Below, one piece after another: positions 8,655 to 50,210 of a DNA stretch of 64,000 bases. Source of the DNA: Candidatus Woesearchaeota archaeon (lineage in GTDB: Archaea > Nanobdellota > Nanobdellia > Woesearchaeales > ARS49); assembly GCA_016203225.1 (NCBI GenBank), contig JACQNC010000014.1:91715-155714 (forward strand), read 5' to 3'. The notes under the pieces were generated by a model. That model was not told where the DNA came from. It searched no databases and saw nothing but the letters and a program-made list of their open reading frames with translations. Within the stretch, counting starts at the first letter, position 1, and each line of letters starts with the position of its first letter. The position numbers and the translations under genes are program-made.

Positions 8655-8760
8655 TCGTCCCAAGTATGATGAGTCCCAAGCGCGATCTCCTCCGGCAGGT
8701 TTGAGGAGTTGTAGCTATCGATTCTGTCCCGTTAAAGCGACTACCAACCTGCTTATGGCT
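8655..8760 (+). repeat. Intergenic structured repeat, copy A (composite)
   Basis: CGTCCCAAGTATGATGAG...CCGGCAGGTTTG...TATCGATTC...CGACTACCAACCTGCTTATGG. Confidence 0.6.
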
Positions 8761-8795
8761 GCAACGGATGCGGTGTGCACGTGAATCGCGAACGT

Positions 8796-9710
8796 TCATG
8801 TCAGGTCCTGATAGTTCGTCAAACCCTTGATTTTCTTGATGACTGAAATGCCTGCGTTGCAGCCTTCACCGACAGACTTCGAGATCTGGTAGTTGCCGCC
8901 TGTGCAGCCGCCGGCAGCGAACACTCCATCGACGTTTGTCTTTCCGTCACGGTCGATCTTGATCGACTGTCCGTCCATCTCGAGCCCGAGTTTCTGGCTG
9001 AACGCCAGTGCGGTCGCGGTGCCGAGCGCCAGGAACACGCCGTCGGGCTTCTCCTCCGAATTGTCCGAGAACTTGACCTTCTCCAGTCTCTTGTCGCCGA
9101 CGAACTCGACAGCGCGGCGCTTGTCGTACTTGATCTCGCGTTGGTCCAGCATCGTCTTCAATTCAGGAGCGATCGAGAACTCCTTGCCGTTCGACACGAT
9201 CGTGATGTCATCAGTCAATCCAGTGAGCTCGAGCGCCTCTTCCGCGGCGAAACTGCTGTGGCCTATCACGAACACCCTCTTGTTCTTGTAGAACGGACCG
9301 TCGCACGCGACGCACGTATGCACGCCGCGGCCCATCAGCTTGTCCTCATTCTTGGCGCCGGAACTCTTCGCGGTCAATCCGGTGGCGATGATCAGCGCCT
9401 TTGATTGGAATTTGCGCGCATCGGCGAGCTTGACCGTGAACGAGCCACCTTTCTCCTCGGCATGCACGACTTCCGCGACAAGGTGCTCGGCGCCGTACTT
9501 CTTGACCTGCTCGACGCCACGGTCCAGTAAATCAGGACCCGAGACACCATCGCTGCCGAGGAAGTTCCCCACCTCCTGCGCCTTTATCAAACCAGTCTTC
9601 TCGATGTCGCCGATCATAAGCACTTTCAGTCCAGCGCGAGCCATGAATATGCTCGCGGCCATGCCTGCGGGACCGGCGCCTATCGTGATACAATCATAGA
9701 TCCCTGGCAT
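8796..9710 (-). CDS. Thioredoxin-reductase-like flavoprotein, translationally coupled to a Rieske protein
   Basis: Start at the internal Met (YDCITIGAGPAGMAA), CVACDG CxxC, GGCTGG near the C-terminus. The ATG overlaps the stop of the upstream Rieske gene by 1 nt (TAATG). Confidence 0.75.
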   Translation of the reverse strand: MPGIYDCITIGAGPAGMAASIFMARAGLKVLMIGDIEKTGLIKAQEVGNFLGSDGVSGPDLLDRGVEQVKKYGAEHLVAEVVHAEEKGGSFTVKLADARKFQSKALIIATGLTAKSSGAKNEDKLMGRGVHTCVACDGPFYKNKRVFVIGHSSFAAEEALELTGLTDDITIVSNGKEFSIAPELKTMLDQREIKYDKRRAVEFVGDKRLEKVKFSDNSEEKPDGVFLALGTATALAFSQKLGLEMDGQSIKIDRDGKTNVDGVFAAGGCTGGNYQISKSVGEGCNAGISVIKKIKGLTNYQDLT

Positions 9711-10015
9711 TAGGCATCCACCAGGATCTGGCCGCCTTCGACCTTGAGCTTGAAGCAGGAAACCGCTGTCGGCGCAGGCGGAGACAAGACCTTGCCAGTC
9801 GTGACATCGAACTGGCCGCCGTGCCACGGACACGTGACCGTGATGCCGTCCAGCTCGCCTTCTCCCAGCGGGCCGCCCTTGTGCGTGCAACGGCCATTTA
9901 TGCAATAGAATTTCCCTTCCACGTTCGCGATGGCGATATCCTTGTCGTTCGCCTTGAACGCGCGGATGTTCCCCAGAGGAACGTCAGATGTCTTGCAGAC
10001 CGGTACGAATGCCAA
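9710..10015 (-). CDS. Rieske [2Fe-2S] ferredoxin-like protein
   Basis: CTHKGGPL and CPWHGGQF boxes (CxH...CxxH). RBS GGGAGGTG and TATA CCTTTTTATAGC upstream. Confidence 0.8.
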   Translation of the reverse strand: MAFVPVCKTSDVPLGNIRAFKANDKDIAIANVEGKFYCINGRCTHKGGPLGEGELDGITVTCPWHGGQFDVTTGKVLSPPAPTAVSCFKLKVEGGQILVDA

Positions 10016-10110
10016 ACCACACCTCCCTTTGGCAGGTACGTGCTAAGCGGGCTATAAAAAGGTTATTGAGAATCCTGACAGATCATAAAGAATAAAAACC
10101 AAGAAATCAA

Positions 10111-10302
10111 TTACGCTTTCGCGACTTTGACCGCTTTCGGACCCTTGTCCCCCTGCTCGATCTCAAAGGAGACCGCGTCGTTCTCTTTCAGCGTGACGCC
10201 CGGCGCAAGTCCGGTCAGGTGGACGAAATACTCCTTTCCATCCTCGCCCGCGATGAAGCCGAATCCCTTTGAAACGTTGAAAAACTTCACTTTTCCTTTC
10301 AT
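10111..10302 (-). CDS. Cold-shock domain protein
   Basis: MKGKVKFFNVSKGFGFI with RNP1/RNP2-like motifs. Start at the internal ATG, preceded by GGGGGT. Confidence 0.85.
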   Translation of the reverse strand: MKGKVKFFNVSKGFGFIAGEDGKEYFVHLTGLAPGVTLKENDAVSFEIEQGDKGPKAVKVAKA

Positions 10303-10437
10303 TCTGCTACCCCCTAAATAGTGGTTATTATCCTGAACAAGTGCGATGGTTTTTAAGCGTTTGCTTTTTAGGTCGCGCATATAGTCTCACCAAGCTAAAT
10401 CTTTAAATCGGTATCCGCGACGCAAAACCCGGTGGTC

Positions 10438-11010
10438 ATGATGAAAACTCCAGATTCTGCGGTCAGTAGGGTGGAACCCATGCGGAACGAGGCAGCGTAC
10501 AAGATGCTCGAATCGCTGCGCAGACACGAGAAGGATGCCGTGCGCGAGTTCGGCAGGCAGGCCACGACGTTCCTCTCGCCCTTTGTCGAGAAGTACGGCG
10601 CGGCCATCAGAGTCTACACGTTCAACGTGGACAAGGTCGGTACGCCCGAGGAAGAATCACTCACGGCAACGCTCGAGATGCCAAAGACGTGGAACATCAA
10701 TTGTCGGCTCAATTGGGCGCCCGGGACCGGCGGCGGACAGGTCGCGTACGTCCGCAAAATCGCGGCAGATGGGAAAGAATTGGTACGCGTCGCAAGTCTC
10801 ATCACGCTGGTCGAGCGCATCAGTCAGAACCTCAGGTTGGAAACCGGCATCAACCATGACCACAACTTCAGCGTGGCGCCTGTCTCAATCGGCATCGCGG
10901 GATGGTACGCGAATGAAAGCCTGCCCCGCATCGCGGCGGCATTCAATGGACTGGACTGCCTGATGGACGTCTACCTGGCGAAAGAACCGGTCACCGCGTC
11001 GCCGGACTGA
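10438..11010 (+). CDS. Hypothetical protein
   Basis: TATA-like CTTTAAATCGG about 30 nt upstream. No recognisable domain. Confidence 0.45.
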   Translation: MMKTPDSAVSRVEPMRNEAAYKMLESLRRHEKDAVREFGRQATTFLSPFVEKYGAAIRVYTFNVDKVGTPEEESLTATLEMPKTWNINCRLNWAPGTGGGQVAYVRKIAADGKELVRVASLITLVERISQNLRLETGINHDHNFSVAPVSIGIAGWYANESLPRIAAAFNGLDCLMDVYLAKEPVTASPD

Positions 11011-12471
11011 CTAGCCCTTCACGTTCCCGATAGGCCTGAGCGCACATACGGGTTTCGAGATGCCGGCGATCTCCATCGTTCGAACGACCTCGGATATGTC
11101 CTTGTACGCGAAGCCTGCCTCTTCAGCAAGACCTGTGAACGTGGTCGTGCGCACGTAGATCCCTCTTTTCTCCATGTCCTTCTGCAACTGCTCACCGCGA
11201 ATGGCGTGCTTCGCCTGCGTGCGCGACATCGTGCGGCCGGAACCGTGCATCGTGCTGCCGAACGTCTCCTCCTCCGCCTTCTTCGTCCCCAACAGCAGGT
11301 AGCTGCCGGTCTCCATCGATCCACCGACTATGACTGGCTGGCCAAGATCGCGATAAAGCGGCGCCAATTCAGCACGCCCGGGACCGAAGCAGCGCGTCGC
11401 GCCCTTGCGATGCACCAAAACCTCCTTGTTCTTGCCGTTCAGTTTGTGCTTCTCGAGCTTCGCGATGTTGTGAGCGACGTCGTAGATCAATTCCATGCCC
11501 AATTCCTTCGGATCCTCCTTGAACACGTGCTTGAACGCCTCGCGGATCTGGTGCGTGATGACCTGCCTGTTCGCGAAAGCGCTATTCGCCGCGCACGCCA
11601 TCGCGTGGAAGTAGGCCTGGCCTTCTTTGGATCTGAACGGCGCGCACGCGAGCTCAGGATCCCGGACAGTGATGCCGTGCGACTTCATCGCAGGACCGAA
11701 CACGTTCAGGTAGTCTGTCGCGATCTGGTGGCCGAAGCCGCGAGAACCGCAGTGCACCATCACGACGACCTGGCCCTCCTCGAGCCCGAACCTCTTCGCG
11801 GCTTTCGCGTCGAAAAGCTCGCCCTTCCGGATGGTCTGGACCTCAAGATAATGATTGCCCGAGCCGAGCGTGCCGAGCTGGTTTATCCCGCGACCCAATG
11901 CCTTCTGGGAAACCTTCGCGGGATCCGCATGGTCGATCGCGCCGAAATCCTCGATGCGTCCGATGTCGCTCTCCCAACCGTAGCCCTGCTCGACGCACCA
12001 CTTCGCGCCACCTTGCATCGCATCCTTCATCTGCGAAGGGTTCATCCGGACAAAGCCCCTGCCTCCGACGCCGGCAGGCACCATCTTGAACAACGTGTCG
12101 ACGAGCTGCTTGATCTTCGGCTGCACGTCCTTCAACTTCAGGTTCGTCTTGATCAAGCGCATGCCGCAATTGATGTCGAACCCGATCCCGCCAGGAGATA
12201 TCACTCCCTTGTCAGGATCGAACGCGGCGACACCGCCTATAGGAAATCCGTAGCCTGAATGCCCGTCTGCCATGCAGTACGCGTGCTTCTGGATGCCGGG
12301 CAGGCACGCGACGTTCGTCAACTGGTCTACGACAGTGTCGTCCATGTCCTTCATGATCGACGGCGTGCCGTAGATACGCGCCGGCACTTGCATGTCGTGC
12401 TTGAACGTCTTCGGAAGTTCCCAGACGACATCGTCGACCTTAGAGAACTGTCTCAACAGCTCGGGATTCAT
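11011..12471 (-). CDS. rtcB: RNA-splicing ligase RtcB
   Basis: Full-length RtcB signature, including metal-binding His and Cys motifs and the GSMETGSY segment. Confidence 0.95.
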   Translation of the reverse strand: MNPELLRQFSKVDDVVWELPKTFKHDMQVPARIYGTPSIMKDMDDTVVDQLTNVACLPGIQKHAYCMADGHSGYGFPIGGVAAFDPDKGVISPGGIGFDINCGMRLIKTNLKLKDVQPKIKQLVDTLFKMVPAGVGGRGFVRMNPSQMKDAMQGGAKWCVEQGYGWESDIGRIEDFGAIDHADPAKVSQKALGRGINQLGTLGSGNHYLEVQTIRKGELFDAKAAKRFGLEEGQVVVMVHCGSRGFGHQIATDYLNVFGPAMKSHGITVRDPELACAPFRSKEGQAYFHAMACAANSAFANRQVITHQIREAFKHVFKEDPKELGMELIYDVAHNIAKLEKHKLNGKNKEVLVHRKGATRCFGPGRAELAPLYRDLGQPVIVGGSMETGSYLLLGTKKAEEETFGSTMHGSGRTMSRTQAKHAIRGEQLQKDMEKRGIYVRTTTFTGLAEEAGFAYKDISEVVRTMEIAGISKPVCALRPIGNVKG

Positions 12472-12896
12472 ACATCCACCACGACGCGAGCTGTCCAGCC
12501 TTTCTTGTCCTGCGTTACCGAGAACTGGTGCAGCGTGATCGCTTTCACGTCGGTGCCGAGCTTCATCTTCTTGTTTATCGTGTCGCCTTTCAGGTGCGCG
12601 TGCAACTGCCAGCCCTTGTTCTTCGCGACAGAGACCTTGAACTCGCTGAACAGCATCTGTTCCGCGTCCTTGACGTACACGAGTTCTGATAAGAATTCGT
12701 ACAGCAACGTCTCGACCGAGTCCTTCTCGAGCGTTATCGTTGTCGTCTCCTTCGGCTTCACGGTCTTCACGTCCACCATCGCGCTCTCGACCGCCAACGC
12801 CGCGTGCTCGAACAACTCACTCAAATCCTTGCCGACTGCCTCGAACGCGAGGTCCGCCATGGCGATGCCTTCGAGAACGCGGAAACCTTTTTTCAT
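12468..12896 (-). CDS. Archease (RtcB activator)
   Basis: MKKGFRVLEG...FEAVG, the typical archease N-terminus. 4-nt overlap with rtcB. TATA CGTTTAAAAG about 29 nt upstream of the ATG at 12896. The longer ORF up to 12947 would use a GTG start. Confidence 0.85.
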   Translation of the reverse strand: MKKGFRVLEGIAMADLAFEAVGKDLSELFEHAALAVESAMVDVKTVKPKETTTITLEKDSVETLLYEFLSELVYVKDAEQMLFSEFKVSVAKNKGWQLHAHLKGDTINKKMKLGTDVKAITLHQFSVTQDKKGWTARVVVDV

Positions 12897-12948
12897 GACG
12901 TCCATTACCGAGAGCTGCCTTTTAAACGTTGCCTTGTGAACATGCACG

Positions 12949-13032
12949 CGTCCCAGAAATTACTCCCCCGGCAGGTTTGAACGGGCTTTACGGTATCGCT
13001 TCGAAAGCCATAACACCACTAACCTGCTTGGG
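12949..13032 (+). repeat. Intergenic structured repeat, copy B (short form)
   Basis: CCCCCGGCAGGTTTG ... ACACCACTAACCTGCTTGGG. The 5' arm is the reverse complement of the 3' arm. Confidence 0.6.
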
Positions 13033-13067
13033 TACGAGCAACGTAGGCATGCAAAAGTGAAGAACTT

Positions 13068-14549
13068 CTACTTCCAGTCCTCAAGCAACCTGACAAGCAG
13101 CCTGACGCCCGCTCCTGTCCCGCCGGAGACGTTCAAGGGACCGTCCTTCTCTATCCACGCCGGCCCTGCGATGTCAAGATGGCACCAGGGAGTCTTGTCG
13201 ACGAACGCCTTCAGGAACGCGGCGCCTGTCTCTGCGCCTGCGCCGCCGGACTTGCCCGAGATGTTCTTCAGGTCGGCGAAATCGCTCTTCATCATGTCGG
13301 AATACTCGTCATAGAGCGGCAACTGCCACGCCCTGTCATCCGTGTGGCCGGCAGCATCCAGGACCGTGCTGATGAGCTTCTGGTCCGTGCCCATCACGCC
13401 AGACGCGACGTTGCCCAACGCGACCACGCAAGCGCCAGTGAGCGTCGCGAGGTCGATTATCGCGGACGGCTTGAACGTTTCAGCATACGACAACGCGTCG
13501 GCGAGCACGATCCTGCCCTCGGCATCCGTGTTCAGCACCTCTATCGTCTTGCCATTGTATGCCTTGATGATGTCGCCCGGCTTGTACGCGTCTCCGCCAG
13601 GCAGGTTCTCGGTGACCGAGAGGAATCCGAGCACGTGAACGGGCAGCTTCAGCTCTGCAGCGGACTTTATCGCAGCGAACACGGCGGCAGCGCCAGCCAT
13701 GTCAGACTTCATGTCTTCCATGTAGTCAGCCGGCTTCAAAGACAGCCCGCCTGAATCGAACGTGACGCCCTTGCCGACGAGCGCGAGCGGAGCGCCCTTC
13801 GCGCCCTCATAGTCGAGCACGAGCAGACGCGGCTCGCGCACGCTGCCCTTGTTGACCGCGAGGATGCCACCCATGCCCATCTTCTCAAGATCCTTCTTGC
13901 CATACGCGGTGAGCTTCACAGGCAGGTCCTTGAGCGCGTTGCGCACGGCCTCCTCCATCTTCTCGGGATACAGCGAGCTCGCGGGCTCATTCACGAGATC
14001 GCGCGTCAATCGCACATTCGTCGCGATGACGCTGCCCCTGCGCGAACCTTCCTCGACATCAGCCTTGTCGGCGTCGACCAGTAATTCCATGTTATCAAGG
14101 AATTTCTGCTTGTCCTTATCGACAGTCTTGTACTTGGTGAACTGGTACAATCCAAGAAGCGCGCCTTCGGCTACGGCCTGGGCTTTCGCCTTGACGGATC
14201 CTTCTACCGCGGCAGAGAGCAATGCAGTCCCTGCTTTCTTCGCGCCCAGGTCCCTGCAGATGCGCGCTGTAGAGCCAGCGGCCTTCCGCAACAGGTGCAG
14301 ATTCGGCTCCTTGCCCAAACCTACGAGGATGACGTACGGCGTAGGCAGCTTGCCAAGCGTCGTGATGGTGCGCACCTTGAGAGGTTCTCCTGTGAATTGC
14401 TTGCGCTCGACCAGGCGCGAGATCGCGCCACCCAGAATCTTGTCAAGCGCCTGCAATTGACCAGTTAACTGGCCTTCGGGCATGCCGACCACGAGCGCGT
14501 CGCCGGCGTACTGTGCGATGCTTTCCTGCGAGATGGAGAGTTTTGTCAT
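13068..14549 (-). CDS. pepA: Leucyl aminopeptidase (M17)
   Basis: NTDAEGRIVLADAL signature. Confidence 0.9.
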   Translation of the reverse strand: MTKLSISQESIAQYAGDALVVGMPEGQLTGQLQALDKILGGAISRLVERKQFTGEPLKVRTITTLGKLPTPYVILVGLGKEPNLHLLRKAAGSTARICRDLGAKKAGTALLSAAVEGSVKAKAQAVAEGALLGLYQFTKYKTVDKDKQKFLDNMELLVDADKADVEEGSRRGSVIATNVRLTRDLVNEPASSLYPEKMEEAVRNALKDLPVKLTAYGKKDLEKMGMGGILAVNKGSVREPRLLVLDYEGAKGAPLALVGKGVTFDSGGLSLKPADYMEDMKSDMAGAAAVFAAIKSAAELKLPVHVLGFLSVTENLPGGDAYKPGDIIKAYNGKTIEVLNTDAEGRIVLADALSYAETFKPSAIIDLATLTGACVVALGNVASGVMGTDQKLISTVLDAAGHTDDRAWQLPLYDEYSDMMKSDFADLKNISGKSGGAGAETGAAFLKAFVDKTPWCHLDIAGPAWIEKDGPLNVSGGTGAGVRLLVRLLEDWK

Positions 14550-14603
14550 GCCTTCGCTGGCCTTGTCGAGTTATATAAGGTTTTTCTTTGCCAGCGCCAT
14601 AAA

Positions 14604-14611
14604 CTTTATAA
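14604..14611 (+). promoter_or_regulatory. TATA box TTTATAAA for the leaderless gene at 14635
   Basis: 24-nt spacing to the ATG. Confidence 0.5.
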
Positions 14612-14634
14612 ACGGCCATCTTCGAAAAAGAGAC

Positions 14635-15680: not shown

Positions 15681-15794
15681 GTTCCCCGCTTTTCTCCCCA
15701 GGCAGATTGGTAGTCGCTTCATTGCTATCGATTCTATGCCAGTAAAGCGTCAAACCTGCTTGGGACGAGCACACTTCAGTTCATCACGCATGGG
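15681..15794 (+). repeat. Intergenic structured repeat, copy C
   Basis: CCGCTTTTCTCCCCAGGCAGATTGG...TATCGATTC...CAAACCTGCTTGGG...TCATCACGCATGGGG. Confidence 0.65.
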
Positions 15795-15848
15795 GCGACA
15801 GAGTCCTGCATCATAACGTTTTTAAAGCATCCGAAGGGAAGCATTGAC

Positions 15849-18532: not shown

Positions 18533-18654
18533 GGCGCACCCTTTTTCCCTACTTCAGAAGGCATACATTTATAAACCCTCCTTCTCCTATATGAGTATAC
18601 TCGTTCTCGCGAGAGAATCGGTAGAATAGTAAACAATTCCGGAGAGACCCGTAT

Positions 18655-18804
18655 GCAATTCAATGCAGGCGGCTTCGGCGGACCGCGTCAAATGTTCGAC
18701 GCGACCTGCTCGGAGTGCCAGAAAACGTGTCAGGTTCCGTTCAAGCCCAAGGCCGAACGACCTGTCTACTGCAGCGACTGCTTCAAGAAGCACAAGCCGC
18801 AGTA
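18655..18804 (+). CDS. Small zinc-ribbon protein (49 aa)
   Basis: CSECQKTCQVPFKPKAERPVYCSDCF. RBS GGAGAG. Too short for the supplied ORF track. Confidence 0.5.
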
Positions 18805-18832: not shown

Positions 18833-18860
18833 ATCCCTTTTCTTTTTGTCCTTTTTTTCA
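18833..18860 (+). terminator. Oligo-T tract (CCCTTTTCTTTTTGTCCTTTTTTTC) downstream of the small zinc-ribbon gene
   Basis: Archaeal-type poly-T termination signal. Confidence 0.35.
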
Positions 18861-18891
18861 TTCTTTAGTGGTTTTCATTCTTTAGTGGTAA
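18858..18891 (+). promoter_or_regulatory. Tandem 17-nt direct repeat (TTCATTCTTTAGTGGTT x2) immediately upstream of a TATA box
   Basis: Two adjacent near-identical copies end 12 nt before TTTATAAA (18903-18910). A candidate transcription-factor site. Confidence 0.45.
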
Positions 18892-18932
18892 CCGTCAGAA
18901 CCTTTATAAAGGGGGTTCTGGTCCCTGCCTTC

Positions 18933-19316
18933 ATGGCAGTAAGTGAAGCGGAATTCCTGGGCGAGTTCGACGAAGCAGTACGCACCCGCGGTCTCGAACG
19001 CATCCCTATCCATACCTACCTGGCATTCCTGCGAACGAAGGAGCTCAGAGATACAGGCACGCGGACAGAATCCTGGCGAAAGGCACGATCGCTATATCAA
19101 GCGATCCGCGGGCTTTATCATCCAGAGACCGTCTGCGACGCCATGGACCTTCTTAGGCGGAGCGTCATCCCCGTATCGCTCGTAGAATCGTGGGCAAAAG
19201 ACGGGAAACTCGTGACGCCTCTCGAATACGATGCAGCATTACAGGGTTATCCTTCACTACGGGAACCGCTCGATATCGCCATACAGTCAGAACTCGAGAA
19301 CGCATTGACCGTCTAG
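18933..19316 (+). CDS. Hypothetical protein
   Basis: TATA 18903-18910 lies about 25 nt upstream of the ATG (leaderless). Confidence 0.45.
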   Translation: MAVSEAEFLGEFDEAVRTRGLERIPIHTYLAFLRTKELRDTGTRTESWRKARSLYQAIRGLYHPETVCDAMDLLRRSVIPVSLVESWAKDGKLVTPLEYDAALQGYPSLREPLDIAIQSELENALTV

Positions 19317-23300: not shown

Positions 23301-23450
23301 CGTTCCTCGTCCCTCCGCTTTTCTCCCCCGGCAGTTTTGAGGTCGCGTTACATGCAGAACGCAGCGTTCTGCTGTACAGCCGAGACCTTCGGGCTCGGCA
23401 TGTATCGGTATTGATTCAATAGCAAGTATACCACTACAAACCTGCATGGG
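23301..23450 (+). repeat. Intergenic structured repeat, copy D (with nested hairpin insertions)
   Basis: CCGCTTTTCTCCCCCGGCAGTTTTG...hairpins CAGAACGC/GCGTTCTG and GCCGAG/CTCGGC...TATCGGTATTGATTCAATAG...ACCACTACAAACCTGCATGGG. Confidence 0.65.
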
Positions 23451-23530
23451 CATGGCTGCTTTGGAAGTTTGGGCGGCGTATCTCTGTTTCATGCAGAAGT
23501 TTTTTAAACGGCTTCTTTGCCTTTCAGGGT

Positions 23531-32171: not shown

Positions 32172-32185
32172 CGTTCTACACGTTC

Positions 32186-32290
32186 TCGTCCCAGGCGTGA
32201 TGAGTTTCGCCACGATTGACCTCGCGTTACCGCTATCGATTCTATTCCAATAACGCGACTACAAACCTGCTTGGGCACTTAGCCTGGGGG
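32186..32290 (+). repeat. Intergenic structured repeat, copy E (long form)
   Basis: CGTCCCAGGCGTGATGAGTTTCGCCACGATTGAC...TATCGATTCTATTCCAATAACGCGACTACAAACCTGCTTGGG...AGCCTGGGGG. Confidence 0.7.
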
Positions 32291-32309
32291 AGAAAGCCTG
32301 AGAAAGTCC

Positions 32310-32921: not shown

Positions 32922-32954
32922 GCGTCAAACATCCGTTGTAGGCCTTACATTTCT

Positions 32955-33042
32955 GCCCAAGCACGATTGACGTCGCGTTATCGGCGTCGAATCGACTGCA
33001 ATGAGGCAACTACAAACCTGCCTGGGCACGAGCAGCTTGGGA
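32955..33042 (+). repeat. Intergenic structured repeat, copy F
   Basis: CTGCCCAAGCACGATTGACGTCGCGTTATCGGCGTCGAATCG...CAACTACAAACCTGCCTGGG...GCAGCTTGGG. Confidence 0.65.
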
Positions 33043-33052
33043 AGCAACGATT

Positions 33053-34441
33053 TCAAATGCTTCCCGGGGTTATGAACGTGATCTTCTCCAACGATTTCGT
33101 GAACGTGCCCTTCTTGACCTGGGCGTTCTGTTCGTACGAGTATGCGACGCTCAACGTCACCGTGTGCTGCGCCTCGGGACGCGCGACGAACGTGATGGGG
33201 ACGTCTGCAGTGACGGTCTGGCCAACGGCGTTCAATTCCTGGTTGACGACGACGAACCCCAGCTCCTTGCTGCCGTCGAGGGCGCGCACGGTCTCGATCC
33301 TGACCTTGCTGATGCCTGCCTGGACCTCGTATAGTGTGAATTCGGCGCGCAAGCGCTCCGTGACTGTGTTGAACGGCTTGTTGTACGTGTACCGATTGTT
33401 CAGGTGGAAGATGTTGAGGTTGCGGTCGTCGAACAGCGACACGGGCGTGACCTGGATTCCTGATCGCACCTGCGCGACGCACGCCTGAGACTGGCAGCCC
33501 AGGTCCATGTACTGGCCGGCGCTCCCCGAACAGGGCCCGCAGTCTGCTGCGCAGGTGCACTTGTTCTCGTTTCCGTCGCACTGGAAGTTGCCGCACGCGC
33601 CCGCGATAGGGGTGTGCTCGCAGAAGAACTGCGTCTCCGGCCCGCACGTGTCCTCGGTGCCTGCGTTGCCGTCGTCGCAGTCAGGACAGCCGTAATCGAC
33701 GTTAGGCTTGACCCACAAGAACGTCGTGCCGCGGTACGGGCTCAGGAGTTGGCCTGTCTTGCGCTGCGAAGATATAGTGTATTCGTAGTCGATCTTGAGC
33801 TGAGGATCGGTCACAGATCCCTCGAGGTCAGCCGTGACCAAATCGAGATGCAGGTCGTCGCTCACGGCGGCGCCCTTGCCAGAGAACGGCTTGTTCGCGT
33901 CACTGTCGATCAGGATGACGTTCTGCTTGTTTTTGAGCGCAGAGAGCTCGTAGCCGATGATGCGCACGTCGCTCGCGCCGGTCGCGATGGTGTCGAGCGT
34001 AGTCCGGACAGTGAACGGGTCGCGCTTGAAGTTGAACGGCTGGTTGTAAGTGACAGTGACCTTGAACTGGTTGCCCAGGCTGTTTATCGGGTTGGTGACG
34101 CTCACTGGCTTCACGTTCGCCTGAGGCACGGCGATGCTGCACACCGTGTCATCATTGATGCAGGTCTTCTGCAGAAGCGTGCTGCCCGGAACCGCGCCCG
34201 CGCACGTGCCGCAATCGGCTGCGCAGATGCACTCGTTCTCTGTGGTTTCACACTGGCCGTTCCCGCACGCGCCAGGGATCGGCGTGCGGACGCACTTGTT
34301 GTCGACACAACTGCTCGTGTATCCCTGCTTGTCGCAATCAGCTGCCTTTGCGCACTCCTTCTTTGCGCAGCCGGCGAGTATTATGGCGAAAGCAAGAAGA
34401 CCTACGAACAGTACGACCTTCACACCCTTTTTCATGGTCAT
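33053..34441 (-). CDS. Secreted Cys-rich lipoprotein with internal tandem duplication
   Basis: Lipobox LAGC. Two copies of the module CGNxQC...ENxCxCAADCGxC, each followed by a beta-rich domain. Confidence 0.55.
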   Translation of the reverse strand: MTMKKGVKVVLFVGLLAFAIILAGCAKKECAKAADCDKQGYTSSCVDNKCVRTPIPGACGNGQCETTENECICAADCGTCAGAVPGSTLLQKTCINDDTVCSIAVPQANVKPVSVTNPINSLGNQFKVTVTYNQPFNFKRDPFTVRTTLDTIATGASDVRIIGYELSALKNKQNVILIDSDANKPFSGKGAAVSDDLHLDLVTADLEGSVTDPQLKIDYEYTISSQRKTGQLLSPYRGTTFLWVKPNVDYGCPDCDDGNAGTEDTCGPETQFFCEHTPIAGACGNFQCDGNENKCTCAADCGPCSGSAGQYMDLGCQSQACVAQVRSGIQVTPVSLFDDRNLNIFHLNNRYTYNKPFNTVTERLRAEFTLYEVQAGISKVRIETVRALDGSKELGFVVVNQELNAVGQTVTADVPITFVARPEAQHTVTLSVAYSYEQNAQVKKGTFTKSLEKITFITPGSI

Positions 34442-34471: not shown

Positions 34472-34586
34472 TGTTCCGTTGCAGTCCCCGCGTTTCTTCC
34501 CAGGCACGATTGACGTGGCATCATCGGTATCGATTCAATAGTCATAACACCACTACCAACCTGCGTGGGAATCATCACGCCTGGGA
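34472..34586 (+). repeat. Intergenic structured repeat, copy G
   Basis: CCCAGGCACGATTGACG...TATCGATTCAATAGTCATAACACCACTACCAACCTGCGTGGG...TCATCACGCCTGGG. Confidence 0.7.
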
Positions 34587-34602
34587 CAGCAATGTTTTGG
34601 TC

Positions 34603-37248: not shown

Positions 37249-37388
37249 TTTCCCGTTGCAGGCCTGCTCGCGCCCCAGCGTGATGAGTTTTGCCACGATT
37301 GACGTCGTTTTATCGGTGTCGAATCAATAGCGATAACACCACTACAAACCTGCAGGGGTAGCTGTGCTTTAGCTCATCACGCTTGGGA
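37249..37388 (+). repeat. Intergenic structured repeat, copy H (long form)
   Basis: CCCCAGCGTGATGAGTTTTGCCACGATTGACGTCG...GTCGAATCAATAGCGATAACACCACTACAAACCTGCAGGGG...CTCATCACGCTTGGG. Confidence 0.7.
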
Positions 37389-37441
37389 ACGTGGGTGCAA
37401 GGAGCATAACGCATTTATAGCACTGATTCAGGCTCACAATT

Positions 37442-41603: not shown

Positions 41604-41611
41604 TGCGTTTA

Positions 41612-44019: not shown

Positions 44020-44844
44020 TTGTGCATCGCAGTGAGTTCCTTCATCAGACAAGTGGCCTACACCGCGACGGTACTCGCGTCCCTGTTACTTCCCGGATGC
44101 ATCTCCCCAGGAAAGGTCACGGAGGAGACCGCGAGCTACGTCTCCTATCGCTCACGGCACGAGCTCGAATCATTGCTGAGGGAAGGACTCCAGCATCCCG
44201 AGAATCAGCGCACGTTCCGCGCGCTCCGCACCGCGATGGTTGCAGATGGTACAGAGCGCGGAGGATTCTTCGCGGACAGCAGGTACGTCCAGTTCTTCTC
44301 AGTCAAGAACGAGCTCGAGAACGCCAACGCGCACCTAGACGCCGCACGCAAAGGCGATATCGCCGCATGCTGCGCGCTAGAGAACCACATAAGACTCGCT
44401 AGTTACGTGCGCACAAAGAACCAAGGCTGCCTCGTGCCGCTCACACACCTGTATCCCGTCCTCTACCAGGCCCGCAGCGGCGCGATGGCCGACGCGCCCT
44501 GGAGGATGTTCACCGAACAGTTCAATGTTGAAGTCAAGCCGTGGATGTACTGCATGGATGGCGCGGATTTCGCCGCGAAGCAGCGCCAGGCAGGAGGCCC
44601 GCTCATCGCGCACGTGCACTACCACGCCGGTAGGTGCACGTCCACGCGCGACGGGCGCGACACGCCAAACCAAGCTTCGCGCATCGATGAGGAGCTCGGT
44701 CTTGATCGGCCCGAACTAGTGATGGTTCCGCACGAAGATAAATTGGAGGCGTGGCTCACGTGGAAAAGCGTCGAGACCTTCGTCGGCAGCATCCCGATGG
44801 GAGAATCTTCTGTTTTAGTTGGACCGGCTCTGTTGGAGAAATAA
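44020..44844 (+). CDS. Hypothetical lipoprotein
   Basis: LLPGC lipobox. Confidence 0.4.
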   Translation: MCIAVSSFIRQVAYTATVLASLLLPGCISPGKVTEETASYVSYRSRHELESLLREGLQHPENQRTFRALRTAMVADGTERGGFFADSRYVQFFSVKNELENANAHLDAARKGDIAACCALENHIRLASYVRTKNQGCLVPLTHLYPVLYQARSGAMADAPWRMFTEQFNVEVKPWMYCMDGADFAAKQRQAGGPLIAHVHYHAGRCTSTRDGRDTPNQASRIDEELGLDRPELVMVPHEDKLEAWLTWKSVETFVGSIPMGESSVLVGPALLEK

Positions 44845-45037
44845 AGACCAAAGCTTTTAAATCCGCATTCTTAAACGAATCAAAAGTACTTCAAGGGCCT
44901 GTAGCATACGAGCCGTGCCTCCGAATCTCGGCTGTCGCTGCAGTCCCATTCGCTACGCTCTTGGGCCTGTAGCATAACTTGGATAGTGCGGTGGGCTTCG
45001 GACCCATTGATCGGGGTTCAAATCCTCGCAGGCCCGC

Positions 45038-45328
45038 TTATTCTTCCTCATCAGAAAACGGTTCCCGGCACTTGATCGGGTTCGCGACGACGGTCTGTCG
45101 GACGTAGCCTCGCACGTACTCACCGAATTCATTCCTTGCTGCGTCGTCAGTCCTGCTCTTGAGTTTATCGATAACAGACATAGTCCCGTCAGGATTCGCG
45201 ATGCAAACGTGATAACCCAGATCATCCTTGCGCAACTCGAAATGTGTCGGTTCATCGAGTGCCACTTCGAGTTTGTCCACCAAGGTCATGCAGGTCGAAA
45301 CCGTGCGTGGTGCGATGATTTCATCCAT
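45038..45328 (-). CDS. Hypothetical protein
   Basis: ORF only. Confidence 0.3.
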   Translation of the reverse strand: MDEIIAPRTVSTCMTLVDKLEVALDEPTHFELRKDDLGYHVCIANPDGTMSVIDKLKSRTDDAARNEFGEYVRGYVRQTVVANPIKCREPFSDEEE

Positions 45329-45370
45329 ATCGCACTAGATCGTAAATGAATATATTAGGCTATCGAAGAA

Positions 45371-45568
45371 CTAGGACTCTTCGCGGCGCTTCATCAGCCG
45401 CGTGACGTAGCCCGCGACAGTGTTGCGGATCTTCTTGCTCGCGACGCCGCCCATGTGCTGTTCGACCAGGACCTTGTTCTCATCGAATGATTCCTTCATC
45501 ACGCTCTTGTGGTCGCGCAGCAGCTGGAAACTGAGGCGTTTGATCATTTGTGTCTTGATGCGTCCCAT
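45371..45568 (-). CDS. rps17e: 30S ribosomal protein S17e
   Basis: MGRIKTQMIKR...YVTRLMKR. Confidence 0.85.
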   Translation of the reverse strand: MGRIKTQMIKRLSFQLLRDHKSVMKESFDENKVLVEQHMGGVASKKIRNTVAGYVTRLMKRREES

Positions 45569-45723
45569 AAATCACTATCGACGGAAGAGAAGCATTTTGC
45601 AGTCGGGAAGGTATATAAATGTTTGCACGAACTATTCTTTCTGAACTATATTTTCTTGTTCTATATGCTTTGTGAAGGAAAAGTTTAAGAATCCATGCAC
45701 GCACATCCTTTCGAGGTGATTTT

Positions 45724-46176
45724 GTGGAAAACACGAAGCTCAGGTGGGGCTCTACATTGATGATGATCGCGGGCCTCTCCTTCATCGGGTATGCGGCACT
45801 ATTCTTTTTCAGGAACTTCACCGATCAGTTCCTTGAACTCGGCATCAGCGCGGCACAGGTGAATGTCGGAAGGGCAGAAATCACCGCATTTAGCCCATCG
45901 CTGTTCAACTATATCAGTCATCTGCACGTCGCAGTTTCTGGGTTCATCGCAGCAACAGGACTTGCGGTTGTTGGACTCGCGTGGCATGGCGTGCGCAAAG
46001 GCATGCGTTGGGCTTGGGGGTATGCGGTCGCAGCACCGGTGCTCGGCCTCGCGGTCGCGTTGCCGCTGCATTATGTCTATGGGATCGCAACGATTGGCCA
46101 CCTGGGCTTGATTTATCTTGCGACAGCGATCTTTGTCATAGGCGCGATCGTGGCATTACTCGGGCTTAAAGAATAG
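45724..46176 (+). CDS. Membrane protein
   Basis: Four predicted TM helices. Confidence 0.4.
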   Translation: MENTKLRWGSTLMMIAGLSFIGYAALFFFRNFTDQFLELGISAAQVNVGRAEITAFSPSLFNYISHLHVAVSGFIAATGLAVVGLAWHGVRKGMRWAWGYAVAAPVLGLAVALPLHYVYGIATIGHLGLIYLATAIFVIGAIVALLGLKE

Positions 46177-46245
46177 GGATGAATAGGGATTTTTTGTTTT
46201 CATTTACAAATCTTTTTAAATGGTCAGGCATCTGTTTCTGTTCAC

Positions 46246-46317
46246 GGGCCCGTGGTCTAGCGGTATGACGTCTCGTTGACGTCGAGAAGGTCGCCAGTTC
46301 GAATCTGGCCGGGCCCA
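46246..46317 (+). tRNA. tRNA-Val (anticodon GAC)
   Basis: 7-bp acceptor GGGCCCG/CGGGCCC, anticodon stem TCTCG/CGAGA with loop TTGACGT, T-arm GCCAG-TTCGAAT-CTGGC, discriminator A. TATA-like TCTTTTTAAATGG about 30 nt upstream. Confidence 0.85.
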
Positions 46318-46373
46318 CTCTTTTTTCCTCAGAATGCACAAAACATAAAAACAGGAAGTTACTTTTAAACGTC

Positions 46374-46952
46374 ATGAAAATTTGGTGGGTGATAGGATTC
46401 AGCGTCTTCCTTGCAGCATGTTCGACCGGTGCGCAGACCACAGACCCGTACGCGTCACTCGGCGACGGCGTGCCCGTGGAGGGAGAGACTGGCGCCATAG
46501 CTTCTTACGCCGCAGAAGTCGGCTCGCAGAAAGGCGAGCAGGCTCCCGATTTCACCATCAATACCGTAGACGGCAAGGACGTCACGCTCTCGCGGCTGCT
46601 GCTCGACAAGCCTGTCCTGGTCTATTTCTGGACGACGTGGTGCCCGGCGTGCCAACACGACCTCGGTGTCATGAAAGAAATCTATCCCGCATACAAAGAC
46701 GATTTCGAGATCATCGCGATCAACATGGACCTTGACGAGGACGAGAACGTCATCAGGAACTACTTGCGAGAGAAACCTAACCCTGGTATCCAGTTCGCGG
46801 CAGGCACGGAAGCCATCCTGCGCGATTATGACGTCATCTACACGAGCACGAAAGTGCCTGTCGGGAAAAACGGAGTCATCCTCTGGCGCGGCTCGGGCGA
46901 GATGGAACGCGACCTGATGGTGACCCTGTTCGAAGGCTTGAAGAACTCATAA
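46374..46952 (+). CDS. TlpA/redoxin-like thioredoxin-fold lipoprotein
   Basis: Lipobox LAAC. WTTWCPACQ. Confidence 0.75.
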   Translation: MKIWWVIGFSVFLAACSTGAQTTDPYASLGDGVPVEGETGAIASYAAEVGSQKGEQAPDFTINTVDGKDVTLSRLLLDKPVLVYFWTTWCPACQHDLGVMKEIYPAYKDDFEIIAINMDLDEDENVIRNYLREKPNPGIQFAAGTEAILRDYDVIYTSTKVPVGKNGVILWRGSGEMERDLMVTLFEGLKNS

Positions 46953-47000
46953 TAGCCGCAAAAGCAACCTTTAAATAGGCCACGGCTTTAAATCCCCCAG

Positions 47001-48089
47001 ATGGTCTTGAAAAAAGAGGAGTATTTCAAGTACTTTTTCCTGGCGTTGTTCGCCCTAATCGCATTCCTAAGCTTCCAGATCGCGAAGCCGTTCCTGGGCG
47101 CGATCCTTTCAAGCTTCGTCCTCGCGTACACGTTCCACCCGGTGTACCGTTGGTTGGTGAAGTATCTCAAGAGCCCGACAATCTCTGCGCTGCTCATCAG
47201 TCTCGTGCTCATCGCGACACTCATACTGCCGATATTCTTCGTGGCAGACAACATAGTCACCGACGCGCGAGTGGGGTACGTCCTACTCAAGCAGAAACTC
47301 GCAACTGGCAACATCTTCGGCGTCGCTTGCCCCGAAGACGCGACATCGTTCGCGTGCAGGATGACCGGTCCGATCAAGAACTTCCTCGCTGACCCCCAGA
47401 CCAACGCCTACCTGCAGGAGGCCATCAGCAACGGAACAGCATTCCTGTTAACAGAGATATCTGGATTCCTGTTGAGTCTCCCGAAGATATTACTGAAGCT
47501 CGCAGTCACGTTCTTCATCATGTTCTACCTGTTCATAGACGGAGAGACACTTGTACAGCGCGGTCGACGGCTCATCCCGCTCACCGAGAAACACCAGCAG
47601 CACATCCTGCAGAAGCTGCAGGACGTCACGTTCGCGGTCGTCTATGGCAGTCTCATAGTCGCGCTCATCCAAGGCGCACTAGGTGGCCTAGGATTCTGGC
47701 TCTTCGGCATCGGAAGCCCGTTGCTCTGGGGAAGCGTGATGGCGGTCTTCGCGCTGGTGCCTTTTGTCGGCACGGCAGCGGTATGGCTGCCCGCGAGCAT
47801 CTTCCTAATGGTGGTTGGCGCTTCTGACGGCGACCCTAACATAGTCTGGAACGGAATCGGGCTGCTCCTATGGGGCGCGCTGCTCGTCAGCACCATCGAC
47901 AACTTCCTCAAGCCGAAGATCATCGGCGAACGCGCAGGCGTCCACCCTGCCATGGTGTTGGTCGGAGCGTTGGGCGGACTCGCGCTGATAGGCTTCATCG
48001 GGTTCGTAGTGGGTCCTTTGATCCTCGGACTGCTAAAGACCTTCATCGACATCTACGAACGCGAAGAGCTCAAAAGGAACGGACGATGA
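47001..48089 (+). CDS. AI-2E family transporter (PerM/UPF0118)
   Basis: Characteristic C-terminal TM core (GGLGFWLFGIGSPLLWG...VPFVG). Confidence 0.85.
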   Translation: MVLKKEEYFKYFFLALFALIAFLSFQIAKPFLGAILSSFVLAYTFHPVYRWLVKYLKSPTISALLISLVLIATLILPIFFVADNIVTDARVGYVLLKQKLATGNIFGVACPEDATSFACRMTGPIKNFLADPQTNAYLQEAISNGTAFLLTEISGFLLSLPKILLKLAVTFFIMFYLFIDGETLVQRGRRLIPLTEKHQQHILQKLQDVTFAVVYGSLIVALIQGALGGLGFWLFGIGSPLLWGSVMAVFALVPFVGTAAVWLPASIFLMVVGASDGDPNIVWNGIGLLLWGALLVSTIDNFLKPKIIGERAGVHPAMVLVGALGGLALIGFIGFVVGPLILGLLKTFIDIYEREELKRNGR

Positions 48090-48160
48090 GGCTCCCATTC
48101 AAAGACAATGCCCAAGTAGTGCTTGTGCAAGCCTTTGATAGGGAACCGAGCACACAATGA
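48086..48160 (+). CDS. Putative 24-aa leader/coupling ORF (MRLPFKDNAQVVLVQAFDREPSTQ)
   Basis: ATGA overlap with the AI-2E stop (48086-48089). Its TGA overlaps the AMP phosphorylase ATG (48157-48160). Its first 7 codons echo the AMP phosphorylase start MRLPVKD. Confidence 0.35.
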   Translation: MRLPFKDNAQVVLVQAFDREPSTQ

Positions 48161-49653
48161 GACTCCCTGTCAAAGACATGGATATCGCCACTGGCAGCGT
48201 CCGCGTCGTGATCCTAAACCAGCAGGACGCGGCGCGCATGGATCTGCACGCGAACGACCGACTCTTCCTACGCAAAGGTGGCCGTAAGGCCATAGCCATC
48301 CTTGATGTGGCCGAGAGCGAGAAGGCTGTCCCGCCGGGCAGGATCGGGCTTTTCGAGGAAGTGCTCGACGCTCTCAATGCGAAACACAATGACATCGTGG
48401 ACTTCATCCTCGCACGCAAACCCGAAAGCATTGATTCAATCAAGCTCAAGATGGACGGCAAGGAACTCACGCCCTCGCAGATAAACGGCATAGTGAAGGA
48501 CATCGTTCACAGCAACCTCACTGATGTCGAGCTCACGAGCTTCGTGACGGCGAACTACATACATGGCATGACCATGAACGAGGTCGTCAGCCTGACGAAG
48601 AGCATGGCGTATTCAGGGCTGCATCTTTCCTTACGAAGAAGACCGATCATGGACGTCCACAGCATCGGCGGAGTGCCGGGGAACAGGACAACGCCGATTG
48701 TCGTGCCCATCGTGGCAGCGGCGGGATTGACGATCCCTAAGACGAGCTCGCGCGCGATCACGTCCCCCGCCGGAACGGCCGATGCGCTCGAAGTGCTCAC
48801 GAACGTGATCCTGCCGAAGGAGAAACTCGAGCGGCTTGCGTATCAATTGGGAGGATTCATGGTGTGGGGAGGCGCAATATCTTTGGCGCCAGCAGATGAC
48901 AAGATAATCGCTGTCGAGCACCCACTGAACATCGATGCCGAAGGCCAGATGCTGGCCAGCATAATGGCCAAGAAAGCTTCGGTGGGAGCGACGCATCTGC
49001 TGTTGGAGATCCCCATCGATAGGAACGGCAAGGTCCGCGATGAGCGCCGTGCGCTGCACTTGAAGAACGCATTCTGCACTTTGGGAAACAAGCTCGGCAT
49101 AGATGTGCATGTCCTTGTTACGGATGGTTCGCAGCCGATCGGCAATGGAATAGGGCCCGCGCTCGAGGCGCGCGACGTGATATGGGTATTGACGGATGAC
49201 CGTCGAGGGCCTCAGGACCTGCGCGAGAAAAGCCTCATCATGGCGGGCAAGCTCCTCGAGATGGGCAATTGCTGCAAAAGAGGCGAAGGCTACGCTACTG
49301 CCGAACGCATACTCGATTCAGGAGAAGCGTACGCGAAATTCATCGAGATCATCAAGGCGCAAGGCGGACCCCGCATAGTCAAAGCGGACGCGGTGCCTTT
49401 GAGCGCGCATACTTTCATCGTGCGCGCGCCTCGCAATGGCACGATCACGAACATGGACAACAAGGCCCTGGCAAGCATCGCGAAAGCCGCTGGCGCGCCT
49501 TCTGACCACGGCAGCGGGATCTTCCTGCACAAGCACCGCAGCGAAAACGTGCGCCGAGGCGAACCGTTGTACACGATACACGCCGGCAGCCGCGACGAAC
49601 TCAGGTATGCGACATCCGCGGCACGCGCATTCAACGGAGTGAGCATCCGATGA
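48157..49653 (+). CDS. AMP phosphorylase (type III thymidine-phosphorylase family)
   Basis: Length about 500 aa. Motifs SIGGVPGNRTTP, TSSRAITSPAGTAD. Confidence 0.85.
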   Translation: MRLPVKDMDIATGSVRVVILNQQDAARMDLHANDRLFLRKGGRKAIAILDVAESEKAVPPGRIGLFEEVLDALNAKHNDIVDFILARKPESIDSIKLKMDGKELTPSQINGIVKDIVHSNLTDVELTSFVTANYIHGMTMNEVVSLTKSMAYSGLHLSLRRRPIMDVHSIGGVPGNRTTPIVVPIVAAAGLTIPKTSSRAITSPAGTADALEVLTNVILPKEKLERLAYQLGGFMVWGGAISLAPADDKIIAVEHPLNIDAEGQMLASIMAKKASVGATHLLLEIPIDRNGKVRDERRALHLKNAFCTLGNKLGIDVHVLVTDGSQPIGNGIGPALEARDVIWVLTDDRRGPQDLREKSLIMAGKLLEMGNCCKRGEGYATAERILDSGEAYAKFIEIIKAQGGPRIVKADAVPLSAHTFIVRAPRNGTITNMDNKALASIAKAAGAPSDHGSGIFLHKHRSENVRRGEPLYTIHAGSRDELRYATSAARAFNGVSIR

Positions 49654-50087
49654 AGCTTGCAGAACAAGACAAGCAGTTCCTGATGGCCCTGTTCTATGGG
49701 ACCGCGATAATCGTTTTCTGGCGCGGAGTGTGGGGGATATTCGACGCCATCCCGATACTGAACAACGTGTACGTCTCGTTCTTCATCGGACTTGCCGCGC
49801 TGACTCTGACCGGCATGATCTATCGCGAATTCGACTTCTTCTCGCAACGCGCGAACAAGCTCACGAAAGTTCTCCACGGAGTGTTGACAGAAGCCAAGCG
49901 CGAAGAAGGTTACCTGATCCACTACTTCGACGAATTGACGGGCAAGCACGAGACCATCCAACCTCGGAAAGTGCGTCGGATCGAGCACAACGTCATGGTC
50001 GTAGAAGACAAAGGCCACGAGATATTCATCCCGCTGCACAGGATCTCCAAGATCCACAAGGACGGGAAGGCGATTTGGACGAAGTAA
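49650..50087 (+). CDS. Membrane protein
   Basis: ATGA overlap with the upstream gene. Two N-terminal TM helices. Confidence 0.45.
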   Translation: MKLAEQDKQFLMALFYGTAIIVFWRGVWGIFDAIPILNNVYVSFFIGLAALTLTGMIYREFDFFSQRANKLTKVLHGVLTEAKREEGYLIHYFDELTGKHETIQPRKVRRIEHNVMVVEDKGHEIFIPLHRISKIHKDGKAIWTK

Positions 50088-50096
50088 AAATATTCT

Positions 50097-50210
50097 ACGT
50101 TCGTTGCTCCCCCGGCATGATTGACGTCGCTTCAAAAGCATCACATCGATAACGATGAAGCAACCACAAACCTGCCTGGGGAGATTACGCTTGGAACGCA
50201 CCTGGGAGGG
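50097..50210 (+). repeat. Intergenic structured repeat, copy I
   Basis: CTCCCCCGGCATGATTGACGTCGC...ACATCGATAACGATGAAGCAACCACAAACCTGCCTGGGG...ACGCTTGG...CCTGGGAGGG. Confidence 0.65.

Follow-up and report, generated by a model that had tools for sequence, protein, structure and literature searches.

Miniature inverted-repeat transposable elements, or MITEs, such as Correia/NEMIS of Neisseria, ERIC/IRU of enterobacteria, RUP of Streptococcus and SM1-4 of Sulfolobus are non-coding units of 75-180 bp whose terminal and internal inverted repeats allow the whole unit to fold back, and which lie between genes in many diverged copies, with short target duplications, deletion derivatives and a presence or absence that varies between related genomes. 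All of these properties recur in the repeat family described here, which occupies nine intergenic sites (copies A to I) in a 64,000-nt stretch of the genome of a Candidatus Woesearchaeota archaeon (GCA_016203225.1, contig JACQNC010000014.1, positions 91,715 to 155,714; the whole stretch is hereafter called the window). Unlike those MITEs, the family has no sequence similarity to any described family and no known partner insertion sequence with the same ends; its best-conserved bases are internal (AACCTGC.TGGG) and not at the extreme ends, its copies are retained at orthologous sites under position-specific constraint, and their orientation is largely uniform. We favour, with moderate confidence, the interpretation that it is a lineage-specific, non-autonomous, MITE-like family of palindromic mobile DNA, old in its Woesearchaeota (DPANN) clade, whose conserved bases are read by a trans-acting protein; by analogy, its behaviour appears closest to that of bacterial REPIN, ERIC or Correia elements.

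To our knowledge, REPIN-RAYT systems have been reported only from Bacteria. Like the repetitive extragenic palindromic (REP) and REPIN sequences associated with RAYT transposases (HUH Y1), the element is an extragenic palindrome of two inverted halves that forms mosaics with small hairpins. Moreover, as REPINs do, it has persisted vertically over a long time and kept its master sequence stable (orthologous copies at six of seven fully comparable sites and a partial one at site B, the same consensus at 49 of 52 columns), and its GTAG (ACTAC on the + strand) and CGTC motifs recall the tags of REP units, which are hairpins of 20-40 nt that end on one side in a GTAG or CGTC tag left unpaired (PMC3733652). 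The element departs from this plan in several respects: its arms are not short hairpins, its GTAG and CGTC are partly paired, its loop measures about 21 nt as against 2-5 nt in REP, and its 5-bp target duplication is not expected for HUH transposition. In addition, the published survey of tagged REPs found them in bacterial phyla only (PMC3733652).

The original prediction, made from the letters of the window, listed nine copies of a structured intergenic repeat, and nhmmer profile and covariance-model searches recovered exactly these nine loci and none further in the 64 kb, which corresponds to about 140 copies per Mb. Within the window, the 23-nt 3' box gave five matches at up to three mismatches, all on the + strand, against 0.00 expected, and the 14-nt CAAACCTGCCTGGG gave 13 matches at up to two mismatches against 0.32 expected, the matches on + being 3' arms and those on - the complementary 5' arms. 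De novo repeat detection likewise recovered the element without prior information (repeat families D1-D5 and D7). The predicted intergenic placement holds for every copy, as judged from open reading frames, Pfam matches and gene calls. Elements are 100-180 nt long, and further copies occur in three other lineages. According to a published MITE census, one of the archaeal genomes richest in MITEs, with 105 per Mb, is Woesearchaeal (PMC11602168); the present element is previously undescribed, the Woesearchaeal MITEs of that census having been compared by description only, not by sequence.

The anatomy of the element was derived from an alignment of the nine copies, later extended to 16. The core is an imperfect palindrome of about 75 nt in which two arms of about 25 bp flank an AT-rich centre of about 21 nt that holds TCGA.TC. 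The consensus of the 5' arm reads CCCnGGCA.G.TTGA.GT.GC.TTA and that of the 3' arm TAA.GC.ACTACAAACCTGC.TGGG; the terminal inverted repeats, CCCnGGCAgGtTTGA... and ...CAAACCTGCnTGGG, pair in 74% of alignment cells, as against 31-48% when slid. The two boxes, described earlier as reverse complements, are indeed complementary, although imperfectly so. Two discrete types of 5' arm exist, CAGGTTTGAG and CACGATTGAC, the latter of which has two mispairs with the 3' arm, at positions that do not differ among the copies carrying it, and the 3' arm is far better conserved than its pairing partner. An inner stem, GTCGCGTTA/TAACGCGAC, encloses the loop, the single arms are not self-complementary, and GTAG and CGTC lie at the foot of this stem, where they are partly paired, as well as at the outer ends.

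Outside the core follow nested inverted modules, CGTCCCAGGCGTGATGAG / CTCATCACGCCTGGGACG and, further out, CCGTTGCAG / CTGCAACGG, which are deleted to differing extents among the copies; the copies are mosaic deletion derivatives. Because the outer modules have been lost unequally, the long and short forms of the original prediction are deletion derivatives of one longer nested palindrome. Its outer CATCACGCCTGGG / CCCAGGCGTGATGAG module exists, but only in some copies, and its internal box TATCGATTCAATAG is not general, only three copies having it when two mismatches are allowed; the sequence conserved at that place is TCGA.TC. In copy C the two arms seem to have changed places, the GTAGTCGC arm being the 5' one.

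Evidence for mobility and age comes from relatives reached through homologs of RtcB, PolB and TIM. The closest is a sister genome (Logan run SRR32573209; loci L005, L009 and L012), whose proteins are about 90% identical to those of the window (range 79-93%, RtcB 93%). Copy A is a 153-nt lineage-specific insertion flanked by TTCAT (ATGAA) at 8637-8641 and 8795-8799. In the relatives L005 and L008 this junction has no spacer, the stop codon of Pyr_redox and the start codon of AP_endonuc overlapping in ATGA; set against the 153 nt bordered by ATGAA in the window, this identifies copy A as an insertion with a 5-bp target duplication. Furthermore, the outgroup L016 (GCA_964550175.1) has gaps of 1 nt at site F and of 32 nt at site G, and the outgroup L017 has one of 9 nt at site E. 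The search for target duplications and empty sites that had been suggested with the original prediction has thus yielded both, with the duplication at copy A and empty sites for A, E, F and G. New copies insert in intergenic DNA, operon junctions included, and generate a short target duplication.

The family is itself a target of insertion. The extra hairpins predicted in copy D are real and form a nested 52-nt module, flanked by TA at 23349-23350 and 23403-23404. The sister copy D (L009) lacks the module at the window position; in that genome it is copy C that holds the module, on the opposite side of the centre, in reverse orientation and once more bordered by TA/TA, and none was found outside the elements. 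With two independent insertions between TA/TA, a second and smaller mobile hairpin targets the first element: a 52-nt double hairpin inserts, with TA duplications, into the AT-rich centre of the elements. As a side observation, two copies of the sister genome hold hairpins that are absent from their window orthologs, namely CTCGCCT...AGGCGAG in copy F (L012 4870-4940) and, towards the outside of copy D (L009 5837-5872), a tandem pair of TCGAACG-NNN-CGTTCGA hairpins, which suggests that a wider population of mini-hairpin inserts lives inside the elements.

In the sister genome, sites C, D, E, F, G and H are occupied by orthologous copies that point the same way as in the window, which makes six of the seven fully comparable sites, together with a partial copy at site B; only copy A is missing. 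Contig L005 ends inside the partial copy, about 40 nt of near-palindrome that scores 17.7 and 14.9 bits in the two orientations. Site I is covered by no relative's contig and hence stands outside these comparisons. Orthologs have site-specific peculiarities in common, namely the GTAGTCGCTT arm at site C, GTGG at site G and the subfamily-specific GTGATGA(G/A)TTTTGCCA (GTGATGAGTTTTGCCA) at site H, so the copies of window and sister genome are orthologous by descent and have not been replaced. Most window copies therefore predate the split of the sister species and have stayed at the same sites, and element turnover is slow, given a single difference between the two genomes among eight comparable sites.

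At greater distance, L013 represents a third lineage (TIM 77% identical), in which site G holds a significant copy and site F a partial copy, and diverged family members are present in a fourth lineage (L017 and L008). The original prediction had considered that the family might be restricted to the window; the copies in the sister genome and in two more distant lineages refute this. Separately, at site E the outgroup L016 has a 150-nt spacer (10694-10775) with a vaguely similar palindrome, GTCCCCGGCCGTTATTGTAGCGTCG...GCTAACGGTTCTAATCGGGGC, that agrees with the family at 22 of 42 conserved columns and reaches significance under neither model. It may represent a degenerate family member of great age.

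The indication of continuing constraint lies in the rates of single positions. Fourfold degenerate sites are 53.8% identical between window and sister genome (33% by chance), with a divergence d of about 0.72-0.78. Element identity amounts to 67% in orthologous pairs, 67% among window paralogs and 64% in cross-genome non-orthologs, and identity within genomes (0.67 and 0.60) is not clearly higher than between genomes (0.64). When columns are classed as conserved or variable from other copies only, as a guard against circularity, orthologs are 85% identical in family-conserved and 44% identical in family-variable columns. In the arms alone, 13.7% of conserved and 54.7% of variable columns differ (Fisher p = 7e-9), which gives d values of about 0.15 and 0.98. 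Conserved columns alternate with free ones from base to base, and at 49 of 52 columns the two genomes have one and the same family consensus. Roughly half of the core evolves about five times more slowly than synonymous sites, and the interleaved positions evolve about neutrally. Because of this single-base alternation of slow and fast columns, tract-wise gene conversion fails to account for the pattern, which points to purifying selection on about half of the core positions. We infer that this selection acts on the sequence and not on pairing.

The co-orientation of the copies is less strict than originally claimed, because the element is nearly palindromic. In leave-one-out scoring, copies B, D, E, F, G, H and I are clearly on the + strand, but copy A is a tie between strands (34.4 vs 33.6 bits) and copy C scores better on - (52.4 bits, vs 35.1 on +), with its ACTAC-bearing arm 5' and a centre that matches the + copies. 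Copy C is taken as + by inference from its sister ortholog, which scores 48.8 vs 25.0 bits in the window's + sense. Seven or eight of the nine copies are therefore informative, and all of them agree (two-sided p about 0.008-0.016). The further claim that orientation disregards the flanking genes stands, copies A, B and F being antisense to operons and copies C, D, H and I in sense.

The alternative offered in the original prediction, a family of transcribed structured small RNAs or, more broadly, of cis-acting RNA hairpins, is not supported. It could appeal to a consensus that forms a long hairpin, paired well above its slid controls, to the orientation common to most copies and to the four copies that lie in sense between co-directional genes and would on that account be transcribed by read-through. 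The compensatory covariation by which such a family was to be recognised is nevertheless missing. In the 16-copy alignment, the full 23-pair hairpin has 74.4% of its cells paired, vs 75.1% after partners are shuffled among copies, and the covariation score of 0.115 lies below the shuffled mean of 0.130 (424 of 500 shuffles at least as high); as neither value exceeds the shuffles, the hairpin belongs to the consensus and is not repaired copy by copy. Moreover, RNAalifold keeps seven terminal pairs at -2.66 kcal/mol with a covariation term of -0.12, minimum free energy z-scores of single copies against shuffles are weak (+0.5 to -2.35), and G.T mispairs are not significantly commoner than A.C (29 vs 19, p = 0.19), so that neither strand stands out as the folding strand. 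In agreement with the claim that no known RNA class is involved, an Rfam search of the whole window in gathering mode brought only three tRNAs to threshold, and in E-value mode over 32.1-37.5 kb (copies E to H) the best overlapping match had E = 1.4, far below threshold. No consistent common promoter was found upstream of the copies, and bacterial-type terminators are not enriched. With an orientation that is independent of neighbouring genes, to the point of lying antisense to operons at A, B and F, and a 3' arm conserved far beyond its partner, an RNA family is improbable.

Three further candidates were tried and rejected. A C/D-box small RNA was suggested by GTGATGA followed 12 nt later by TTGA, but there is no D box and no Rfam match, and the GTGATGA motif is one arm of a perfect inverted repeat. 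A peptide-coding, RPE-like element does not agree with the reading frames, none of which is open across copies, several copies having stops in all frames. Archaeal origin recognition box (ORB) repeats do not agree with copies dispersed over 42 kb and with the lack of an Orc1/Cdc6 gene, a Pfam search of the window having found neither Orc1/Cdc6 nor an integrase.

The MITE/REP-like half of the original prediction, in contrast to its RNA half, is borne out by the inverted repeats, the insertion with target duplication, the empty sites and the non-coding nature of the element, together with a Pfam search of the window proteins that, as predicted, found no transposase. The family is small, non-coding and multicopy, with terminal inverted repeats and a target duplication established from filled and empty sites, as in MITEs. 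It probably inserts rarely, and its copies are probably under sequence-level constraint because a protein still recognises them. Such a trans-acting protein would read the conserved bases as sequence. The likeliest reader would be a mobilising enzyme, for example a transposase, possibly domesticated, whose gene lies in another part of the genome; alternatively, a DNA-binding factor of the host would be the reader. Recognition by this protein, and not an RNA fold, would keep the family consensus stable, and an enzyme acting on one DNA strand during replication would, at a guess, fit the near-uniform orientation over 42 kb.

Several observations weigh against this interpretation of a protein-read mobile family. 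For the main element, a single target duplication (copy A) is verified by an empty site; CATGCA at 12941-12946 and 13048-13053, around copy B, is a candidate duplication of 6 bp, not 5. No transposase, integrase or HUH protein was seen in the window and about 190 kb of related loci. The orientation bias stems from seven or eight informative copies in one 64-kb window, most of them inherited. Element-bearing spacers are 65.5% identical between the genomes, vs 73.5% for other spacers (range 48-94%), and since they are not better conserved overall, the case for constraint rests on position-specific rates. At sites F and G the arm type switches between genomes (CACGATTGAC vs CAGGTTTGAG), which looks like gene conversion and indicates that some concerted evolution occurs. 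Alignment of the variable centre is uncertain and could exaggerate the contrast between conserved and variable columns, an effect that the arms-only test mostly avoids. Finally, a scan for GCAGGTTKGTNGT-N25-45-CNANGTCAATCRTG, a pattern that fits only the CACGATTGAC subtype of the window and so under-samples the family, returned one match among GTDB representative genomes and one in a JGI metagenome, both of which are chance matches, lying in coding-like DNA and lacking a profile match. Two patterns scanned against viral contigs gave 0 matches.

Among the explanations that compete for the same evidence, the boldest would make the family an archaeal counterpart of the vertically inherited REPIN-RAYT replicators of bacteria, or an exapted derivative of one, with a dedicated protein still reading the palindromes. 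We put this forward tentatively and regard it as lying on the unlikely side; about 190 kb of sequence from the window and related loci showed no RAYT gene. If true, a palindrome family would have persisted in a streamlined DPANN genome since before several species split, under purifying selection at single-base resolution, one-strand action in replication might explain its common orientation, and the family would double as a landing pad for a second, smaller mobile hairpin. A population of purely selfish, decaying MITEs, conserved in appearance through gene conversion and fresh insertions at preferred intergenic sites, would account for the recent mobility of copy A, the mosaic deletion derivatives, spacers no better conserved than others, and the arm-type switches at F and G and the form change at E, which resemble conversion or replacement. 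Unbiased conversion, however, leaves a consensus drifting, yet the two genomes agree at 49 of 52 columns with fourfold sites only 54% identical; slow and fast columns alternate by single bases, identity within genomes is not clearly above that between genomes, and orthologs keep their site-specific features, with one difference in eight comparable sites. We accordingly judge purely selfish decay unlikely.

Host chromosomal sites that no longer move, whether bound by a polar replication, segregation or chromosome-folding factor or serving as upstream regulatory sites, would explain the position-specific purifying selection and the orthologous retention, and also the co-orientation along 42 kb whatever the gene direction and the fact that six of nine copies end 12-25 nt from the promoter box of a neighbouring gene (transcription factor B recognition element, BRE, and TATA). 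We attach little probability to this, as the insertion of copy A with its target duplication shows that the family still moves, copies between convergent genes and inside operons serve no promoter, the distance to promoters is variable, outgroups have no elements at the same junctions, and no protein is known that might bind the sites. There are reports of integrons from archaeal metagenome-assembled genomes, and integron-like attC recombination sites marking gene cassettes would likewise be imperfect palindromes of 60-140 nt in one orientation with recurrent stem mismatches. The arms of the element, however, read 5'-GGTTTG...CAAACC-3' and not 5'-RYYYAAC...GTTRRRY-3', which is the opposite polarity, so that the R'' and R' cores of attC are missing; copies are spaced 0.7-13 kb apart, with housekeeping genes (RtcB, PolB, TIM, ProRS) between them that are syntenic in element-free relatives; and the window has neither an integrase nor a cassette array. 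Arm polarity and gene content effectively refute the attC explanation.

Few cellular genomes are as small and compact as those of DPANN archaea. At the density of the window, the family would fill roughly 1-2% of such a genome, a load whose long tolerance is not expected unless it is harmless or useful. With half of the bases of each copy fixed at orthologous sites and synonymous sites largely randomised, the family offers a tractable case for studying how small mobile palindromes persist; the candidate causes are a transposase that has been domesticated, which has been proposed for the REPINs of bacteria, and recruitment by the host. Its long-term position-specific conservation in a streamlined archaeal genome, together with the nested second element, is what makes it of interest for follow-up. 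On the practical level, the covariance model and consensus provide a marker for the Woesearchaeal clade, and the repeats may contribute to assembly breaks, as where L005 ends in a partial copy; the population of the window was assembled through copies E to G. The positions of all copies are collected in Table 1.

Table 1. Copies of the element and the nested module in the window, with their genomic setting and the place of orthologous copies in relatives
Feature	Extent	Core	Strand	Setting and form	Orthologous copies
Copy A	8642..8794	8685-8761	+ listed, leave-one-out ambiguous	Between Pyr_redox_2 stop and AP_endonuc_2 start	
Copy B	12947..13047	12961-13036	+	Between PepA stop and archease promoter	
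Copy C	15681..15799	15692-15768	+	Between DUF5667 gene and FAD/NAD-binding oxidoreductase promoter	L009
Copy D	23301..23478	23321-23454	+	Between VTT-domain gene and TPR gene promoter; holds nested module	L009
Nested 52-nt module	23351-23402		+	Double hairpin CAGAACG-CAG-CGTTCTG + GCCGAG-N8-CTCGGC, inside copy D	
Copy E	32185..32292	32200-32279	+	Between convergent TIM and 203-aa pilin-like genes; long form with CCCAGGCGTGATGAG	L012 4130-4209
Copy F	32932..33050	32951-33030	+	Inside minus-strand gene pair, 462-aa then 203-aa gene	L012 4943-5022
Copy G	34472..34594	34494-34573	+	Adjoins promoter of 462-aa gene	L012 6482-6561; L013 10497-10568 (nhmmer E = 6e-7)
Copy H	37249..37391	37283-37362	+	Upstream of epimerase promoter; long form, both outer arms CCCCAGCGTGATGAG and CTCATCACGCTTGGG	L012 10209-10288
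Copy I	50097..50199	50105-50184	+	Between MJ1316-domain gene and Ski2-like helicase promoter	

The closeness of many copies to a BRE/TATA box may mark only where insertions are tolerated. As an observation on the promoters themselves, a motif (A/G)AAC(G/C)TTTA(T/A)AA(A/G)C recurs about 25-30 nt upstream of start codons beside many genes, for example at window positions 14599, 19705, 27170, 36297 and 41024 (20-nt repeat family D14). It is probably the BRE/TATA promoter of the clade, in which case mRNAs would be mostly leaderless or have short leaders. The gene between copies F and G, which encodes a 462-aa Cys-rich, secreted or lipoprotein-like protein, contains a 98-nt direct repeat of its own (33525-33622 and 34197-34294, 73% identical), which suggests an internal domain duplication.

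The genes of the window are otherwise archaeal housekeeping genes, including those for RtcB with archease, a short-form TIM, a family-B DNA polymerase, ProRS, an IleRS-type synthetase, L10e, TFB, a Ski2-like helicase and AMP phosphorylase. The GC content is about 57%, the GC skew of the + strand is mostly negative, and DNA of the window is also present in the Logan assemblies of SRR12113383 and SRR12113384. Its RtcB and PolB are 100% identical to NCBI proteins of Candidatus Woesearchaeota archaeon (locus tag HY493_05355). Among the relatives, proteins of L013/L014 (GCA_035476335.1, DATILO010000085.1) are labelled 'Candidatus Binatia bacterium' at NCBI; the gene order PolB, thioredoxin reductase, NYN, Zip, TIM and a 468-aa gene, as well as the repeats, is that of the Woesearchaeal clade, and the contig DATILO010000085.1 is probably mis-binned.

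Additional differences between the window and its sister genome concern other kinds of DNA. Between RtcB and a Rieske gene, window positions 10031-11012 hold a cold-shock-domain gene and a 176-aa gene of unknown function, and the matching junction of the sister genome is a 47-nt spacer (L005 1988-2034) from which both are absent; the pair is a lineage-specific gene gain or loss. Conversely, a stretch of about 600 nt of lower GC content in the sister genome (L005 4951-5553) has no counterpart in the window. At its borders stands a 25-nt direct repeat, CCTGTCCCCGNTGCAAAAGCACNGA, in which the start of a downstream 70-aa gene is duplicated, and the stretch looks like inserted foreign DNA. Finally, the leader (window 18559-18706 and 18860-18968) of a zinc-ribbon gene of about 50 aa (MQFNAGGFGGPRQMFDATCSECQK...) shares 89-91% of its bases with the sister genome, more than coding DNA does on average (80%). 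It has no Rfam match; its hairpin, TTCTCGCGAGAGAA, is recognisable also in the distant relative L008 (6760-6840), and the leader may be a conserved 5' untranslated region element or a small RNA.

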